Shown: positions 2,315-16,277, counted from the stretch's first letter. The stretch is DNA of 16,277 bases from an uncultured Eubacteriales bacterium (GCA_964631135.1 CAZVVZ010000015.1:1-16277); one strand, 5' to 3'. Translations and numbers: made by a program. Notes: generated from the letters alone by a model not told the origin.

Positions 2315-2341
2315 CAAAAAACTGCCGGTAATACCGGCAGT
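2315..2341 (-). terminator. intrinsic terminator downstream of the csp gene (also faces the convergent peptidase gene)
   Basis: 9-bp GC-rich stem ACTGCCGGT/ACCGGCAGT (2321-2341) with a 3-nt loop. On the minus strand it is followed by TTTTTT (A-run 2315-2320). It lies between convergent stops at 2287 and 2395. Confidence 0.8.
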
Positions 2342-2394
2342 ATATTGTTAAAAACGGACATCGAAATCATCTTCAAACAATATTTGTTTTTGAA

Positions 2395-2601
2395 TTAAAG
2401 AGCAACAACGTTTGCAGCTTGTGGACCCTTAGCTCCATCAACTACTTCAAATTCAACTTCTGCACCTTCTGCTAAGCTCTTATAACCTTCCATACTGATA
2501 GCTGAAAAATGAACAAATACGTCATTTCCGCCTTCTCTTTCGATAAATCCGTAACCTTTTTCAGAATTAAACCATTTAACTTTTCCTTTTTCCACTTTCA
2601 C
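2395..2601 (-). CDS. cspA: cold-shock protein (CspA family, CSD)
   Basis: [14 protein letters not shown] (RNP1) and VFVHFS (RNP2) motifs, 66-68 aa. The track start is GTG 2601, only 3 nt from AGGAGG. The in-frame GTG at 2595 (9-nt spacing) is an equally good or better start. Confidence 0.95.
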
Positions 2602-2748: not shown

Positions 2749-2916
2749 GTTACTAGTCAGAGTATATGCCGCTGGTCAGAGTACATGAAATAAGATATAT
2801 ATTTTATCGGAACTCAGGATTTGCGACGAAAGACTTTAAAAAATACGGGAAGTCTTTCGGCAAATATTCGTTCCTTTTAAAACATATATCTTATTTCATG
2901 TACTCTGACTAGTAAC
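2749..2916 (+). mobile_element. foldback (long imperfect palindrome) repeat element, copy 1, flanked by 8-bp direct repeats
   Basis: 168-nt hairpin-forming palindrome. Arms 2749-2764 plus 2784-2800 pair with 2884-2916. The core 2795-2889 is 93/95 identical to 9931-10025. CCGAGTTT is directly repeated at 2741-2748 and 2917-2924, exactly abutting both ends. No ORF. Confidence 0.85.
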
Positions 2917-3009: not shown

Positions 3010-3906
3010 ATGTCTGTTGTTTCACCGGAGCAGTTTGCTATGTTGAAATTTGCAAATAAAGACTTTAAAAATATCCAAAAGCACTATAAAAAATTTCATG
3101 ATATAAATTCAAATAAGTACCTTGCTGTATATAAACAAGGGCTTTACGGTATTTTAGATATGGAAACTGAAAAATTAGTAGTACCTCATAAATATCAAAA
3201 GATATGTGACTTTAAAGAAAATTTTGCATGGGTTAAAGCGAAGAATAAATGGGGTTTTATAAATAAAGACCTTATCGAAATTGTTCCGCCCAAGTATGTA
3301 GATGCATTTGGATTAGATAATGGTAATTTTCAGTTAGGAGTAATACATTGTGTCGGTACCCCTCAAATAACTGATGATTTGTCCGGGCTAACAACCTGGT
3401 ACAAAGAAAATCGTAAAAAGAATCCACCTATATTATATAATAGGATTCAAGGATTCAGCGAAGGGTTAACCCCTATAAAGCTCCGTAAGAAATGGGGATT
3501 TATAGATACAAATGGGAATTTAGCCATAAAGCCAAGGTTTGAATATGCGAAGCCATTCTCTTTTGGAACTTCTGCTGTGTGTCTTAATGGAAAATGGGGA
3601 TTTATAAATAGTAAAGGTATTTTTGTTATAAAACCACAGTATGCTGACTGCACATCGTTTATGAAACATTCTCAAGCATTAGCAAAGGTGAACTTAAAAC
3701 GGCCTGCCCATAATGCAATTCTTGCATATTTATATAGTGTATTTAAAAAGGTGTACGTTCCTACAAATACCGATTCGCCGTTCGCCCAAGTAGAAATACC
3801 TTCTGAAGATATTGGAAAAATAAAAATCGCTTACATAGATCCTAATGGGATAAAAATAAAAAGAAGTGCAAAAAAAGATATTGAAGTGCACTCTGAAATA
3901 TATTAG
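3010..3906 (+). CDS. WG-repeat (KWG-type beta-propeller-like repeat) protein, cytoplasmic
   Basis: Repeated motif KWGFI(N/D)xxG three times (NKWGFINKD, KKWGFIDTNG, GKWGFINSKG), plus a degenerate LYGILDMETEK unit. No signal peptide. Confidence 0.8.
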   Translation: MSVVSPEQFAMLKFANKDFKNIQKHYKKFHDINSNKYLAVYKQGLYGILDMETEKLVVPHKYQKICDFKENFAWVKAKNKWGFINKDLIEIVPPKYVDAFGLDNGNFQLGVIHCVGTPQITDDLSGLTTWYKENRKKNPPILYNRIQGFSEGLTPIKLRKKWGFIDTNGNLAIKPRFEYAKPFSFGTSAVCLNGKWGFINSKGIFVIKPQYADCTSFMKHSQALAKVNLKRPAHNAILAYLYSVFKKVYVPTNTDSPFAQVEIPSEDIGKIKIAYIDPNGIKIKRSAKKDIEVHSEIY

Positions 3907-3927
3907 AAATAATAGTTTTACAATAAA

Positions 3928-4040
3928 GCAGATGTCATATAGTTTAACGTTGCTCAGAATTCACGGTGAAAATCTTTTATCATATGCTATAAGTCGGTTT
4001 CCTGTGAATATTCGCATCTTTTAAACTATATGACATCTGC
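3928..4040 (+). repeat. diverged member of the foldback element family (copy 3), probably acting as terminator between convergent genes
   Basis: Perfect 20-bp outer stem GCAGATGTCATATAGTTTAA/TTAAACTATATGACATCTGC. The inner part has the same internal-loop motif as copies 1 and 2 (TCAGAAT opposite ATATTC), flanked by covarying helices. It is followed by ACTATTTTTTT on the plus strand. Confidence 0.7.
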
Positions 4041-4146
4041 ACTATTTTTTTACTTACGAAGGCTTTTTCAGCAGCCTCCAATAAGCTCCTATTTTGTTAT
4101 AAAGCCATTGATATTGAACTTTACTCTGGTTAGTATCTGATAATGC

Positions 4147-4578
4147 TTAGTCTTTCCAGTCTCTATCTTCGCAAATATCACATAAGCATTGAGAAATCTC
4201 AACGTCAAAATCACAGTCTAGTGCAATATCTCCTAAAGAGACTAACCCTACCAATTTTTCGTTATCAACTATCGGCAACCTTCTAACCTGCCAGTCTGAC
4301 ATAATCTCGCAAGCCTCATCTAGAGACATATCCGGTCTCCCTGTTTTTACACCCGAAGTCATAATATCTTTAACCATAGTAGTTTCGGGATCCTTTCCTT
4401 CAGCAATATTTCTGACAACAATATCCCTATCAGTAACCAATCCAAGTAAAACCTGGTTGTCATTACATACAGGGACCACTCCTATGTCATATTTTTGCAT
4501 TATTTCAGCAGTTTTTTTAAGGTCTGTGTTAGGTGTAACCCATTTTAAATTTGTGTTCATAATTTCTTTAATTTTCAT
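4147..4578 (-). CDS. CBS-domain pair protein
   Basis: Two CBS repeats (IMxxxxxxVxPxxxL...A...M....IGxxPV and RRLPIVDNEKLVGLVSLGDI). The track start is TTG 4596, inside the upstream T-run. ATG 4578 has a GAAGGGA SD 9 nt upstream. Confidence 0.85.
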   Translation of the reverse strand: MKIKEIMNTNLKWVTPNTDLKKTAEIMQKYDIGVVPVCNDNQVLLGLVTDRDIVVRNIAEGKDPETTMVKDIMTSGVKTGRPDMSLDEACEIMSDWQVRRLPIVDNEKLVGLVSLGDIALDCDFDVEISQCLCDICEDRDWKD

Positions 4579-4594
4579 TTTGCTCATTCCCTTC

Positions 4595-4631
4595 AAAAAA
4601 AATAGACAACCTTAGTTTGCCTATTTTTTTT
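4595..4631 (-). terminator. weak intrinsic terminator after the secreted-protein gene
   Basis: Stem AATAGACAA/TTGCCTATT (4601-4609 with 4617-4625, one mismatch) and a 7-nt loop. It is flanked by an A-run and a T-run, so the minus strand has a U-tract after the stem. Confidence 0.45.
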
Positions 4632-4635
4632 GCAT

Positions 4636-5145
4636 TTATTCAGTGACTGAACCTGTCTCATAATAATTTATTGTAAATGTCACAGGGTTTGATGGCATTG
4701 AAAAAACTGAAATCGGATATTTCAACCAGCTAGGTGAGAATGTCATTCCACTAATATCCCAACCTCCAAAGTAATAATCATTAGTATTAGTTATAGCCTG
4801 AACAACTACCGGCTCTCCAACTATTTTACTTGAATTTTTTAGAACAAAAAGTCCTGTATCTATAGTTATTTCCTGTCTATCCTCAGCCATTATAGCCTCT
4901 ATTACAACATTACTCTCCGGCATAATAAACTCATCATCAGTAATCGTAACACCGCCCTCTTTTACATTCCAGCCGGTTATTTCAGGAATTTTAATGTCTA
5001 AATCTATTACCTCACCGACATCTCCCGAAACGACTAAATCTATACCTTTTATTCTTAATGTTACTGTATATGGACTGCTCACACTGGCAAAAGAAACATT
5101 TAATGCTAAAAATATAAATAAAAAAAGCGAAACTAATTTTTTCAT
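4636..5145 (-). CDS. secreted hypothetical protein with signal peptide
   Basis: N-terminus MKKLVSLFLFIFLALNVSFA is a classic signal peptide. Two loosely repeated beta-rich segments end in xTGWNV and YYFGGWDISG, faintly resembling the Listeria-Bacteroides (Flg_new) repeat. Start moved to ATG 5145 (GAGGTG SD 7 nt upstream); the track start is GTG 5160. Confidence 0.7.
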   Translation of the reverse strand: MKKLVSLFLFIFLALNVSFASVSSPYTVTLRIKGIDLVVSGDVGEVIDLDIKIPEITGWNVKEGGVTITDDEFIMPESNVVIEAIMAEDRQEITIDTGLFVLKNSSKIVGEPVVVQAITNTNDYYFGGWDISGMTFSPSWLKYPISVFSMPSNPVTFTINYYETGSVTE

Positions 5146-9815: not shown

Positions 9816-9842
9816 ACCTGCCTCCTTTATAAAACATAATGT

Positions 9843-9871
9843 ATTTTACCATGTTTTTACTCATATTTCAA
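9843..9871 (-). promoter_or_regulatory. sigma-A promoter of the asp23-nusB-xseAB-ispA operon (TTGAAA-N17-TGgTAAAAT)
   Basis: The minus strand reads TTGAAAtatgagtaaaaacaTGgTAAAAT, with a 17-nt spacer and extended -10, about 28 nt upstream of the asp23 ATG. Confidence 0.65.
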
Positions 9872-9897
9872 TATCGGATTTTAGTAATGGAAAATGC

Positions 9898-10059
9898 AAT
9901 GAAACTGCCCGGATTACTATATAAAATAATATATATGTTTTATCGGAACTCAGGATTTGCGACGAAAGACTTTAAAAAATACGGGAAGTCTTTCTGCAAA
10001 TATTCGTTCCTTTTAAAACATATATATTATTTTTATATAGTAGCCCGGGCAGTTTCATT
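9898..10059 (+). repeat. foldback repeat element, copy 2, nested in a GC-rich terminator-like palindrome downstream of sigE
   Basis: 162-nt hairpin. The outer 15-bp stem AATGAAACTGCCCGG/CCGGGCAGTTTCATT encloses an element homologous to copy 1 (ATTACTA...TAGTAGC). The core 9931-10025 is 93/95 identical to 2795-2889. Confidence 0.85.
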
Positions 10060-10083
10060 ATAGGGACACTAATCAAACATAAG

Positions 10084-10791
10084 TTACATCATCTTTGAAA
10101 TTTCCTTTCTTAATCTTTTTATAATCTTTTTCTCTAACCTAGAAATATATGACTGGGAAATACCCAGCATATCTGCAACCTCTTTTTGTGTCTTTTCCTT
10201 ACCGCTCTTTAGTCCAAACCTAAGCTCCATAATATTACGTTCCCTTCCGGTAAGTTTATCAATAGCATTATTAAGAAGTTTCATATCCACTTCATTTTCA
10301 ATATCTTTATTAACTGATTCAGGATCACCGCCCAAAATATCTGATAATAGCAGTTCATTTCCGTCCCAGTCAACATTTAACGGCTCATCGATAGAAACTT
10401 CGTTTCTTATTTTAGTCATCTTTCTAAGATGCATTAAAATTTCATTTTCAATGCACCTTGATGAATATGTCGCAAGTTTAATATTCTTATTGGCATCAAA
10501 AGTGTTTATAGCTTTAATAAGCCCAATAGTACCGATAGAAATCAAATCTTCAATACCCACACCGGTATTTTCAAATTTTTTTGCAATATATACAACCAAA
10601 CGTAGATTATGCTCAATTAAAACCGGTCTTACTTCCTCGCCACATCTTAATAACCTTAAATAATGTTCTTCTTCACTCGGCTCAAGAGGTGGCGGTAATG
10701 TGTCACTTCCACCTATATAATAAACCGAATTGTCCTGATCATTTCTAAATATAGGCTCCAAGAATTTCATAAAAAATTTTTTAATGTCCAT
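10084..10791 (-). CDS. sigE: sporulation sigma factor, pro-sigma-E
   Basis: [13 protein letters not shown] follows a pro-sequence of about 23 aa. [41 protein letters not shown] and the region 4 [18 protein letters not shown] match SigE rather than SigK or SigG. Start moved to ATG 10791 (GGAGG SD 5 nt upstream). The 21 extra codons in the track lack an SD. Confidence 0.88.
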
Positions 10792-10825
10792 ATACTCCTC
10801 CATCCCGCATGCCTTTGCGTAACTT

Positions 10826-10871
10826 AATTTATATCTAGAGTATATAAGCATCAAAACGTAAAAATTGTCAC
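10826..10871 (-). promoter_or_regulatory. candidate sigE promoter region (two alternative -35/-10 readings)
   Basis: On the minus strand either TTGATG-N17-TAAATT (10849-10854 and 10826-10831) or GTGACA-N21-TATACT (10866-10871 and 10839-10844). Neither reading is strong. Confidence 0.3.
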
Positions 10872-12775: not shown

Positions 12776-12818
12776 AAAAAATGTAGGAATAAGTACCTCT
12801 TTATTCCTACATCTTTTT
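12776..12818 (-). terminator. intrinsic terminator after rpsA
   Basis: Perfect 12-bp stem ATGTAGGAATAA/TTATTCCTACAT (12781-12792 with 12801-12812) and an 8-nt loop. The minus strand has TTTTT after the stem (A-run 12776-12780). Confidence 0.8.
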
Positions 12819-12851: not shown

Positions 12852-14000
12852 TTATTCTTCAGTAACTTCCTCTTTAACAGGCTCAGCTACTGTTTCCTTA
12901 GCTTCAGAATTTTCTTCCTTAACCTCCAAATCAATAGTAGGTTCTTCTAATTCTTTCATGCTAAGCTCAATTTTCTTTTTCTCTAAATCAATCTCCATAA
13001 TTTTAGCATTAACATATTGGCCTACCTTTAATACTTCAGCAGGAGCACCAATTCTCTTATGAGAAATTTGAGAAATATGAATTAACCCTTCTAATCCAAT
13101 TTCAATCTGTGCAAAAGCTCCAAACGGAACAAGTCTTTCAATCTTAACCTCAACGGTATCACCAACATGATATTTTTCTTCAACCTTATTCCAAGGATTA
13201 TCTTCGGCTCTTCTATATCCTAAAGAAATCTTTTTCTTCTCAGGATCAACAGATAACACATAAACATTAACTACCTGTCCAACAGACAAAACCTCACTAG
13301 GAGATTTAATTCTTCCCCAAGATAATTCAGAAATATGAACAAGTCCGTCAACTCCGCCTAAGTCAATAAAAGCTCCAAACTTTTCAATCTGCTTAACTGT
13401 GCCTTTAAGCTCAGCTCCTTCAGTAATATGACTCCATGCTTCAGCTTCTCTCTGTTCTTTAGCTTCTTTAGCAATTACTCTCTCGGAAGCAACAACTTTT
13501 CTTCTTTCCTTATTAGCCTCTAAAAATCTAACAGTAACATTTCTTCCAACATAATCCTCTAGTCTGGCATCTCTTTCAGCAAGCTGAGAAGCAGGGATAA
13601 ATACCTGAATGCCATTTTTATTTGCAAGTAAGCCTGCTCCGACTTCACGAATAACCTTTACGTTAACAGGTTTCTTACTTTCAACCCAACTATCTATTTC
13701 ATCCCACATTTTCATTCCTTCAACTTTACGTCTGGATAAAAGGACTGTTCCATCCATATCATTTACTCTAACAACATATGCTTCCATTTCCTGACCAACT
13801 TTTAGTTCTTTTTCAGGATTACTATCAGCTTCGTCTGAATATTCGGAATACGGCATAATACCATCATACTTTAATCCTAAATCTATAATAATATTGCCAT
13901 TAGCAACATTTGCGACTACTCCTTTTGTAATACTTCCTGAATGAATCTCTTTCAAAGATTCTTCCAACATTTTTTCAAAATCCATTACTTCATTACCCAC
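12852..14000 (-). CDS. rpsA: 30S ribosomal protein S1 homologue (four S1 domains, YpfD-type)
   Basis: 382 aa with four S1 repeats (G..V.G.V..v...G.fv.l..g..Gl.h.Sel) and an acidic C-terminal tail. The track start is GTG 14000; ATG 13985 is an alternative and SD evidence is ambiguous. Confidence 0.9.
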   Translation of the reverse strand: MGNEVMDFEKMLEESLKEIHSGSITKGVVANVANGNIIIDLGLKYDGIMPYSEYSDEADSNPEKELKVGQEMEAYVVRVNDMDGTVLLSRRKVEGMKMWDEIDSWVESKKPVNVKVIREVGAGLLANKNGIQVFIPASQLAERDARLEDYVGRNVTVRFLEANKERRKVVASERVIAKEAKEQREAEAWSHITEGAELKGTVKQIEKFGAFIDLGGVDGLVHISELSWGRIKSPSEVLSVGQVVNVYVLSVDPEKKKISLGYRRAEDNPWNKVEEKYHVGDTVEVKIERLVPFGAFAQIEIGLEGLIHISQISHKRIGAPAEVLKVGQYVNAKIMEIDLEKKKIELSMKELEEPTIDLEVKEENSEAKETVAEPVKEEVTEE

Positions 14001-14015
14001 GTCTTATCCATCCCT

Positions 14016-14849
14016 TCATAGTTCTTTTTGCTTCAAATTCTCGACAACCTGGTCAATAAGGCATTGAGGCGTGGAAGCCCCAGCCATAACAACTATTTTA
14101 CACGATTGTTCCAAAAAATTCAAGTCTAATTCATCAATATTTTCAATAAATTTCGAATTGCACATATTTTTAGCAATATCATACAATCTATTAGAATTAG
14201 CACTGGCTTTATCGCCAATAACTATAACATAATCGGCATCTGCCGCCAATATCTTTAACTCTTTTTGGCGATGTTCCGTTGCTCGACAAATCGTATCAAA
14301 AATAATGCAATTCTTCGCAGCAGCCCTTATTTTATCTACAATAGTTTTATTAAGTTCAACATTCATAGTAGTCTGAGAAACGACACAAACATTTTCTAAA
14401 TTACATTTTTCTACGTCCATAGCACTATTTATAACTTTAAAATTGCCGTCAGTCCATCCTGAAATCCCAATGACCTCAGGATGAGCCTCATCCCCAATTA
14501 TTATAATATAATAGCCATCTTTAGAATATTTGTGTACTATATCATGAATATTTTTAACATTCGGACAAGTTGTATCAACAATATTCAAATTCTTTTTTCG
14601 GCATTCTTCAAACTCTTTGGCAGTAATACCGTGAGCTCTGATAATAACATTACTGTTATCCGGGACATCTTCAACCTTGTCCACAAATATTAAGCCTTTT
14701 TTTCTAAGGCCATCGTTAACAAACTTATTATGGACTATACTCCCAACACTATACACCGAGCTTTTCCCTTCTAAAGCCTTTTCAGTAAGGTCAACGGCAC
14801 GTTTTACCCCAAAGCAGAAACCAGCAGTTTTCGCAACAACTACCTCCAA
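14016..14849 (-). CDS. ispH: 4-hydroxy-3-methylbut-2-enyl diphosphate reductase
   Basis: AKTAGFCFGVKRAV N-terminus, conserved Cys ligands (CFGV, TTCPNV, DTICRAT) and HPE motif. Start re-placed at TTG 14849 (AAGGGGTGA SD 5 nt upstream), which gives the family-typical N-terminus. The track GTG 14858 overlaps the plsC stop. Confidence 0.9.
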   Translation of the reverse strand: MEVVVAKTAGFCFGVKRAVDLTEKALEGKSSVYSVGSIVHNKFVNDGLRKKGLIFVDKVEDVPDNSNVIIRAHGITAKEFEECRKKNLNIVDTTCPNVKNIHDIVHKYSKDGYYIIIIGDEAHPEVIGISGWTDGNFKVINSAMDVEKCNLENVCVVSQTTMNVELNKTIVDKIRAAAKNCIIFDTICRATEHRQKELKILAADADYVIVIGDKASANSNRLYDIAKNMCNSKFIENIDELDLNFLEQSCKIVVMAGASTPQCLIDQVVENLKQKEL

Positions 14850-16199: not shown

Positions 16200-16223
16200 T
16201 TTAAAGTCTTTCGTTGCAAATTC
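16200..16223 (-). repeat. fragment of the foldback element core (inverted relative to copies 1-3)
   Basis: The minus strand GAATTTGCAACGAAAGACTTTAAA matches the core GGATTTGCGACGAAAGACTTTAAA (2818-2841 and 9954-9977) at 22/24. Weaker similarity continues through the cmk promoter. The window ends at 16277, so the upstream arm is truncated. Confidence 0.6.
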
Positions 16224-16277
16224 TTTATCTTTGAAATGTGATAATGTCTTAAGTGTTGAAATGAAAAAATGTCCCAA

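Follow-up and report, generated by a model that had tools for sequence, protein, structure and literature searches.

How do two nearly identical hairpins come to lie in unrelated spacers of one chromosome region, and what kind of element are they? The window analysed here, that is the whole stretch of 16,277 nt, comes from the low-G+C chromosome of an uncultured Clostridia species of the gut or rumen and covers a housekeeping region with genes for purB, a VanX-like dipeptidase, cspA, a WG-repeat protein, CBS, ispA, xseB, xseA, nusB, asp23, a SigE-like sigma factor, typA, an S1 protein, ispH, plsC and cmk. The features referred to below are as follows (positions in the window).

2749-2916, + strand: copy 1, full main-type; termini GTTACT...AGTAAC, core 2795-2889, covariance model match from 2768 (154 bits)
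9898-10059, + strand: copy 2, full main-type; shared module at about 9913-10045 (176 bits)
2727-2742, + strand: 16-nt direct repeat AGTTTTTTAATTTTCC left of copy 1, overlapping the 8-nt CCGAGTTT at 2741-2748
2920-2935, + strand: 16-nt direct repeat right of copy 1, with the 8-nt CCGAGTTT at 2917-2924
3922-4046, + strand: hairpin 3, diverged subfamily, same strand; covariance model 56 bits, E ~2e-10
16200-16224, - strand: 25-nt left-half core fragment AGAATTTGCAACGAAAGACTTTAAA, fused directly to the cmk -35 box

The two hairpins of the window

Segments 2782-2896 and 9918-10032 are 95% identical over 115 nt, with six mismatches between copy 1 and copy 2 (2784, 2787, 2794, 2801, 2859 and 2890). 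Because just 2801 and 2859 fall inside 2795-2889, the 95-nt core named in the original prediction (2795-2889 vs 9931-10025) is indeed identical at 93 of 95 positions. Each core had also been described as the centre of a long imperfect palindrome, and arms were located at both loci (2749-2768/2897-2916 and 2772-2806/2878-2912 for copy 1, 9898-9926/10031-10059 for copy 2). The fold proposed there was recovered, namely an apical stem CGAAAGACTT/AAGTCTTTCG followed by a GA bulge, TTGC/GCAA, an internal loop, GGAAC/GTTCC and an AT-rich stem. This rod-like fold has an energy of -73.8 kcal/mol in copy 1 (z -11.0) and -79.2 kcal/mol in copy 2 (z -14.4), and none of 200 shuffles was equally stable in either case. 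All three double substitutions said to keep the pairing were found (G2794:C2890/T9930:A10026, G2787:C2897/A9923:T10033 and C2784:G2900/T9920:A10037). The outermost 'compensatory' pairs of copy 2 were set aside, because they are decided by whether GAAACTGCCCGG is homologous to GTTACTGGTCAGAG or of local origin. It may be noted that positions 2749-2771 of copy 1 are an additional, strain-variable partial duplicate of the left end, and that the outer stem AATGAAACTGCCCGG/CCGGGCAGTTTCATT of copy 2 is perfect over 15 bp, locus-specific and terminator-like.

The statement that the element holds no ORF is correct for copy 1, which no ORF of at least 60 aa overlaps, and fails for copy 2, which a mechanical 74-aa ORF (9839-10063) overlaps; as copy 1 lacks an equivalent, the element is non-coding. 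We also considered that the core is a coding fragment, since one core frame reads NSGFATKDFKKYGKSFGKYSF and a stretch within the first 60 nt of the WG-repeat gene (3047-3070, peptide FANKDFKN) matches the core at 21 of 24 positions. This idea was dropped because the remaining core frames contain stops and in L012, a contig free of the element, an almost unchanged DNA stretch codes for this WG peptide, so that the match is incidental.

Family members, module and fold

Contigs of the same species were recovered through exact look-ups of the window proteins in ENA, Logan and JGI samples, and the resulting ~47 kb of non-redundant host DNA was searched with BLAST and with a covariance model built from five copies. 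Twelve family-derived loci were obtained, all of them intergenic: four full main-type copies (copies 1 and 2 of the window, hereafter also c1 and c2, c4 at L096:6356-6512 and c7 at L110:1895-2045), hairpin 3, and seven truncated copies or remnants. Hairpin 3, put forward earlier as a diverged member, is placed in the family by its covariance model score; it retains the internal loop TCAGR/ATTC, its helices covary, and it has relatives at L092:13466 onwards, L001:1215-1310 and L110:5030-5074. Among the truncated main-type copies, c5 (L001:2217-2322) ends in the internal loop and c6 (L101:2365-2448) precisely at the apical loop, and terminal remnants lie at L001:3559-3588, adjoining the 25-nt half-core upstream of cmk, and at L110:8040-8073. 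The relation of the 16200-16224 fragment to the core likewise stands, with 23 of 25 positions matching against a chance expectation of 0. The neighbouring cmk promoter has its -35 box TTGACG at 16198-16193 and TATAAT at 16175-16170; the 25-nt motif is not a native part of it, as L012 and L014 keep the promoter and not the motif. Two candidates were left out of the count, a 45-nt BLAST hit at 1445-1546 of AT-rich low complexity and a hairpin in L014, considered as a degenerate member, in which the generic AT-rich stem alone matches (21 bits).

A sister species was reached through a holA homologue of 84% identity, and its contig L114 carries three full copies (s1, s2 and s3; 100-120 bits) within 14.5 kb. 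The core is thus not confined to the two loci at which it was first seen, and the prediction of a dispersed family with many members is borne out by the 12 host loci together with these three copies; any copy number for the genome is an extrapolation from the ~47 kb of host DNA. Many short metagenome contigs stop inside the element, which is what a repeat should produce.

All copies share a unit of ~120 nt, which consists of the core and an AT-rich inner arm of ~25 nt on each side. The core originally given as the unit therefore holds as its central part and has to be widened by the inner arms, and outer arms are sometimes locus-specific (the outer stems of c2, c7, s2 and s3 differ and are unique to their loci). 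At the tip is a stem-loop whose loop varies; below it follow a bulge and the second helix, then the asymmetric internal loop (5' CTCARG / 3' AATATTCG), and lastly helix three and the inner arms. The subfamily ends GTTACTRGTCAGAGTAC...GTACTCTGACYAGTAAC occur, whole or in part, at seven loci. Copies are 149-168 nt long with a G+C content of 29-35%, and their folds range from -56 to -81 kcal/mol (z -11 to -14).

To test the fold, nine copies of the two species were aligned with MAFFT independently of structure. This alignment has 36 consensus pairs with 93.5% of the cells paired, and 16 of the 36 pairs show compensated double changes; none of 500 shuffles matched the observed values on any of five measures, and on sliding the partners by 1-3 columns the compensated pairs fell to 2-5. 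The internal-loop motifs CTCA and TATTCG are invariant in 9/9 copies, the apical loop is the most variable part, and conservation peaks at the centre of the element, not at its termini. By inspection, the internal loop matched neither a kink-turn nor a loop E nor an IHF site. The compensated changes are consistent with palindrome maintenance at the DNA level as well as with selection on structure, since paired changes can stem from arm-to-arm correction or from subfamily-specific terminal repeats. That the internal loop is asymmetric in every copy argues against wholesale arm-to-arm copying.

Strong covariation and invariant loop motifs would also be expected of a structured-RNA family (small RNAs, or cis-regulatory or processing elements) whose covariation reflects selection on an RNA fold, which the original prediction had offered as an alternative to a MITE-like element. 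Copies at gene 3' ends would get transcribed, and MITE-derived small RNAs and RNase III sites have precedent (PMC10969869). However, mismatch-type cells in the alignment show no strand bias (six G-T vs six A-C, loop-closing pair excluded), both strands of the element are about equally stable when folded, and copies differ in their direction with respect to the gene ahead of them (antisense for copy 2, sense for copy 4). Copy 1 sits between divergent -35 boxes (at 2712 for cspA and at 2946 for the WG gene, whose promoter is kept in L012), hence upstream of both flanking promoters, and is therefore probably not transcribed; no promoter internal to the element was consistent among the copies inspected. 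A covariance search of Rfam at E up to 1 returned zero matches for any element, in line with the earlier remark that no Rfam motif is recognisable, and the family is missing from genera at 76-81% XseA identity. Given the lack of strand preference, the mixed orientation and the place of copy 1 between divergent promoters, a foldback element at the DNA level fits better than a dedicated strand-specific RNA. We thus abandon the structured-RNA half of the original alternative, which we now hold to be quite improbable, and retain MITE-like as the best label for an element that is short, AT-rich, intergenic and hairpin-forming with subfamily termini.

Outside the two species the family was searched for in several collections. 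The exact pattern TCAGRATTTGCRACGAAAGACTT had 0 matches in 185,579 species-representative genomes, three exact patterns had 0 matches in viral contigs, BLAST of the element against plasmid and phage collections gave no match, and the family was not found in ~130 kb of syntenic DNA from eight MAGs (XseA identity 50-81%), whose orthologous spacers hold plain terminators or unrelated hairpins instead of the element. One exact match to the 20-nt core pattern GGATTTGCRACGAAAGACTT turned up in JGI metagenomes, on L011; it falls in the N-terminal part of an integrase-like ORF (3589-4797; …ESGFATKDLASS…), forms no hairpin there, and was rejected because one match is about the chance expectation at that collection size. 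This is a previously undescribed family of the well-known species-specific stem-loop repeat kind, of which 92 families were listed in 29 genomes (PMC2267715).

Some relatives carry long hairpins of their own. A related MAG (L017) has an unrelated rod-like hairpin repeat in two copies (13178-13332 and 16115-16288) that share GGGACMAAAAAGCAATTTTTGTTTC... in opposite orientation, one of them in the CBS/WG spacer that hairpin 3 occupies here. L012 has a perfect 37-bp hairpin (14360-14447) and a near-perfect 32-bp hairpin (595-663), both intergenic and of unique sequence. Unusually long terminator-like palindromes may thus be common in the clade even without the module.

Possible mobility, strain differences and palindrome growth

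On applying published MITE criteria (PMC10969869, section 2.1), we found an element below 500 bp that is non-coding, forms a stable stem-loop and is present in multiple dispersed, AT-rich, intergenic copies. As for terminal inverted repeats of about 4-30 bp common to the copies, the GTTACTRGTCAGAGTAC/GTACTCTGACYAGTAAC ends or their terminal part recur at seven loci, and copies 2 and 7 as well as s2 and s3 have other outer stems. Flanking direct repeats are present at copy 1 only (8 + 16 nt, overlapping); there are none at copies 4 and 7, and the flanks of copy 2 and of s1-s3 are inverted, not direct. No IS with matching ends was seen in the examined DNA or in plasmid, phage or viral collections, and no clean filled-vs-empty allele was found among strains, although orthologous sites of relatives are element-free and two sites are common to the host and sister species. 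Membership of the MITE class is thus plausible and unproven, because direct repeats flank copy 1 only and neither a matching IS nor a clean empty allele was found. Conservation that is highest at the centre rather than at the termini is unusual for a MITE; in ERIC the central inverted repeat is the best-conserved part.

The closest known systems are the long-palindrome MITEs, such as ERIC/IRU, Correia/NEMIS, YPAL, Bcr1, Efa-1 of E. faecalis and QMITE2 of C. burnetii, which affect transcription or mRNA processing (PMC10969869; PMC2267715). Like these, the present family is 100-200 nt long, non-coding, AT-rich, intergenic, multi-copy and species- or clade-specific, and it forms long imperfect hairpins near gene ends with both full and truncated copies. 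Unlike these, it has an invariant asymmetric internal loop amid covarying helices and, in many copies, locus-specific perfect outer arms; sequence similarity was absent from every collection searched, and neither a consistent target duplication nor a parent IS was found. SPRITE of S. pneumoniae has a rho-independent-terminator-like structure, and SPRITE, BOX and RUP cluster and insert into one another (PMC10969869). They too are small repeats of a Firmicute, but their sequence is unrelated, and in our family the A/T runs and the GC clamp belong to the locus-specific arms and not to the module.

Three further classes of folded elements were considered. REPINs (BIMEs) are REP doublets mobilised by RAYT; they are intergenic hairpins, often at 3' ends, without target duplication, whose hairpin is kept by compensatory change and which are thought to move as a folded single strand, and they are known mainly from Proteobacteria. 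In a REPIN the stem base with its GTAG head is conserved and the middle variable, whereas in our family it is the outer stem that varies and the centre that is kept. Accordingly, GTAG head and stem-base conservation were absent from our copies, which have the termini GTTACT...AGTAAC and their most conserved part at the centre, and no RAYT (Y1 HUH) gene was seen in the ~60 kb covered from the two genomes. Integron attC sites are imperfect palindromes of 57-141 nt that are recognised as folded single strands, with structure and unpaired bases conserved and sequence variable. The elements differ from them in having GTT...AAC ends, the reverse of 5' RYYYAAC...GTTRRRY 3', in the lack of an integrase, and in their neighbours, as nusB, xseA, typA and cmk are housekeeping genes and not cassettes. 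Xer (dif-like) sites have 11-bp arms around a centre of 6-8 bp and a conserved XerD arm TTATGT; by inspection, the apical repeat here is 10 bp with a 13-nt spacer and the TTATGT arm is absent. The family thus lacks the defining features of REPINs, attC and dif sites.

An insertion sequence does touch one member, and its transposase is the only one nearby. Upstream of the cmk half-core, window positions 16225-16277 and L100:1-200 belong to an ISNCY/IS1202-family IS, of which they form the left end. The N-terminus of its transposase (MRKVVLTLKEENKYQVIKKLVETNGN) is 69% identical to annotated ISNCY transposases on Clostridium plasmids, and the TGATAATGTC boxes of the IS end also occur in a C. estertheticum copy. 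At the exact junction point, two different sequences were seen in other strains. The 25-nt motif is not a terminal repeat of this IS, since it is IS-free in two strain contexts and the IS end starts beyond it; IS1202-family ends (TGT...ACA) also differ from those of the element (PMC10132070). IS1202 relatives target recombinase-bound sites (PMC10132070; bioRxiv 10.1101/2022.12.17.520857).

That an IS1202-family IS abuts a half-core is one reason to ask if an enzyme that works on folded single-stranded or cruciform DNA (an HUH/Y1 enzyme such as RAYT, an IS200/IS605 type or a recombinase) recognises the module, with the internal loop as determinant, and sets it at the apex of terminator hairpins. 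Covarying helices around an invariant internal loop in nine copies of two species, target duplications that are not consistent, copies that sit within locus-specific stems bracketed by A/T runs, and half-elements that stop precisely at the apical loop would all agree with this. Yet a candidate enzyme gene is absent in ~60 kb, the 10-bp apical inverted repeat with its 13-nt variable spacer is unlike known recombinase core sites, breakpoints between strains lie outside the spacer, and the s2 arm is explained by flank duplication (see below) and not by insertion into an existing hairpin. We consider an enzyme-recognised structure unlikely.

Comparison of strains showed where the elements change. 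Between the window and L001 there are 34 differences in 13,454 aligned bases, and seven of the nine intergenic ones are within three elements, five of them in apical regions. Against L003 only six differences occur in 12.7 kb, three of which are in apical loops. The left end of copy 1 (2749-2774) has an added partial duplicate of the terminus, GTTACTAGTCAGAGTATATGCCG, ahead of CTGGTCAGAGTAC; it differs from L002 at five of 13 nt (2762-2774), has another version in L094 and is absent from L001. A block from cmk to the WG gene has different neighbours in two strains, with both edges at element sequence, and the DNA ahead of the cmk half-core was seen in three different contexts, one being the ISNCY/IS1202-like IS. 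Both strain differences and rearrangement breakpoints are concentrated in the elements. In one sample (ERZ27279216) L110:20244-20301 and L103:19-44 also differ in the context upstream of the cmk half-core, so that either more than one strain is present there or the motif occurs at more than one locus.

The apical loop of copy 2 (9972-9984) reads TAAAAAATACGGG, the copy 1 allele, in the window alone, and TAAAAAATATTGG in six other samples. This points to gene conversion between copies or to assembly collapse, so that part of the identity between copies 1 and 2 has that source. Hypermutation of the apical loop was rejected, as each locus has two alleles only and one of these resembles inter-copy conversion; the loop is best described as the least constrained part of the element and not as a site of programmed variation.

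The converted loop raises the further reading that the whole family spread by homologous exchange (gene conversion) among AT-rich terminator hairpins, the inner arms providing the homology. Homology common to all copies reaches no further than the AT-rich inner arms, outer arms are locus-specific, and a relative's hairpin at the copy 2 site matches the inner-arm stem only. But recombination would have very little homology to work with in ~25 nt of AT-rich sequence, the spacers that hold copies 1, 5, 6 and 7 have divergent promoters and are not terminator sites, and the GTTACT...AGTAAC termini, which lie beyond the inner arms, are common to seven loci. Such an origin by exchange therefore appears improbable to us.

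The outer arms are best seen in the sister species. There the palindromes are 221 nt (s1), 286 nt (s2) and 228 nt (s3) long, and the extra positions of each arm are complementary at 35/35, 62/63 and 33/34 positions, respectively. These outer arms have A6...T6 brackets and no second occurrence in the examined DNA. In s2 the left arm takes in the end of an adenosine deaminase gene, namely its final ten codons and the stop. The Pfam domain of the encoded protein extends to residue 346 of 351, and the tail pattern xKIKKxxGxx is common to homologues of other organisms (65-67% identical). The tail is thus native, and the right arm (L114:6736-6766) is, judged from these alignments, the inverted duplicate of the gene 3' end. 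In E. coli, inverted duplications are documented that start from a palindrome and have it at their centre (PMC3315005; PMC4245961). The interrupted palindromes of that system (SbcCD/RecA) resemble s2 in nucleating the inverted duplication of a flank; they were however engineered, in laboratory strains, and gave large rearrangements, whereas here short natural extensions of 35-63 nt per arm are fixed, and this at several loci.

Breakage is seen at the unpaired parts, with truncation points in the apical loop (c6 and the cmk fragment) and in the internal loop (c5). At two sites a full copy in the sister species corresponds to a remnant or half-element in the host species. On comparing L114:5456-8759 with L110:10928-12022, the patatin/AsnRS interval of the sister species was found to contain two added genes, for the adenosine deaminase and for a 559-aa protein, each followed by a full foldback copy. 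The host species has a half-element alone at patatin/AsnRS, which suggests an element-associated deletion.

Gene ends and the origin of the family

Most copies lie directly downstream of genes. Copy 2 lies 25 nt past the sigma-factor stop codon (10084), and it is the only terminator candidate found between this stop and the asp23 promoter (-35 at 9871); L012 has an ordinary terminator at this site. Copy 4 lies 15 nt past flhB. The WG-repeat and CBS genes converge on hairpin 3, which has T7 behind it; L015 has a plain terminator there. The relatives of hairpin 3, the remnant upstream of prfB and s1-s3 are likewise downstream of genes, and the cmk fragment stands where L014 has the terminator of the upstream gene abutting the -35 box. 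The spacers with divergent promoters hold c1, c5, c6 and c7, and intrinsic terminator features are absent at copy 1. The U-run after the stem is T7 at hairpin 3, T6 at s1-s3 and weak at copy 2 (TTTCATTGCATTTT). Judged by their position, the gene-end palindromes probably act as, or replace, bidirectional intrinsic terminators.

If each copy were an ordinary long terminator that evolved in place with no common origin, unrelated long hairpins in the same spacers would be expected, and relatives do have them. However, 115 nt at 95% identity across unrelated loci, and 12 related loci, are not independent events, and several copies lie outside terminator positions. An origin in place is hence refuted and hardly deserves credence; co-option as terminators stays part of the main explanation.

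Some neighbouring features were recorded in passing. The typA/S1-protein spacer has a clean bidirectional terminator hairpin (12776-12817; AATGTAGGAATAA...TTATTCCTACAT, with A and T runs), which on either strand gives a weak match to a plastid 3' UTR family. The Rfam cspA thermoregulator is matched below threshold at 2319-2535 (- strand; 30.7 bits vs a gathering score of 78); this match spans the cold-shock coding region and the terminator at 2321-2341, and is most likely driven by these two. The sigma factor gene (10084-10854, - strand) has typA on one side and asp23 on the other, with no spoIIGA-like gene adjoining it; its product has a 13-residue motif typical of pro-SigE/SigK and is shorter (235 aa) in other assemblies.

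Taken together, we favour, with some confidence, a dispersed family of non-coding foldback modules with MITE- or REPIN-like spread, whose palindromes at gene ends grow and break. Spread would most likely be that of a non-autonomous mobile element of the MITE or REPIN type, with the folded shape rather than the helix sequence under constraint. The module, once in place, would form the apex of a longer palindrome; these palindromes stand mostly behind genes, where they may serve as terminators. They would grow outward by inverted duplication of their flanks, as observed for one sister-species copy, and would break at unpaired loops, leaving the half-elements and terminal remnants that we observe. 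The unusual features of the family are the conserved centre, the invariant asymmetric loop amid covarying helices, and the locus-specific arms, at least one of which arose by inverted duplication.

In a bolder version, which we think rather unlikely, the folded module is recognised through its internal loop by a putative enzyme for single-stranded or cruciform DNA, is set at the tips of terminator hairpins and there nucleates palindrome growth. If that were true, gene 3' ends would be continually remodelled into long bidirectional terminators, and the family would be a Clostridial counterpart of REPIN-RAYT with the conserved and variable parts swapped.

For the favoured foldback family the meaning lies closer to what the copies themselves display. 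Small palindromic repeats influence transcription ends, mRNA stability and genome rearrangement, and nearly all the families studied are from cultured Proteobacteria and a few pathogens, while this one belongs to uncultured gut or rumen Clostridia. The conserved fold with its invariant internal loop predicts a specific binding partner. Natural palindromes have here been extended by copying flanks, including the 3' end of a gene, a process studied mainly with engineered palindromes. Most of what separates near-identical strains between genes is explained by the elements, as are two rearrangement edges and many contig breaks, and these element-linked strain differences matter for the assembly and comparison of metagenome-derived genomes in this group.
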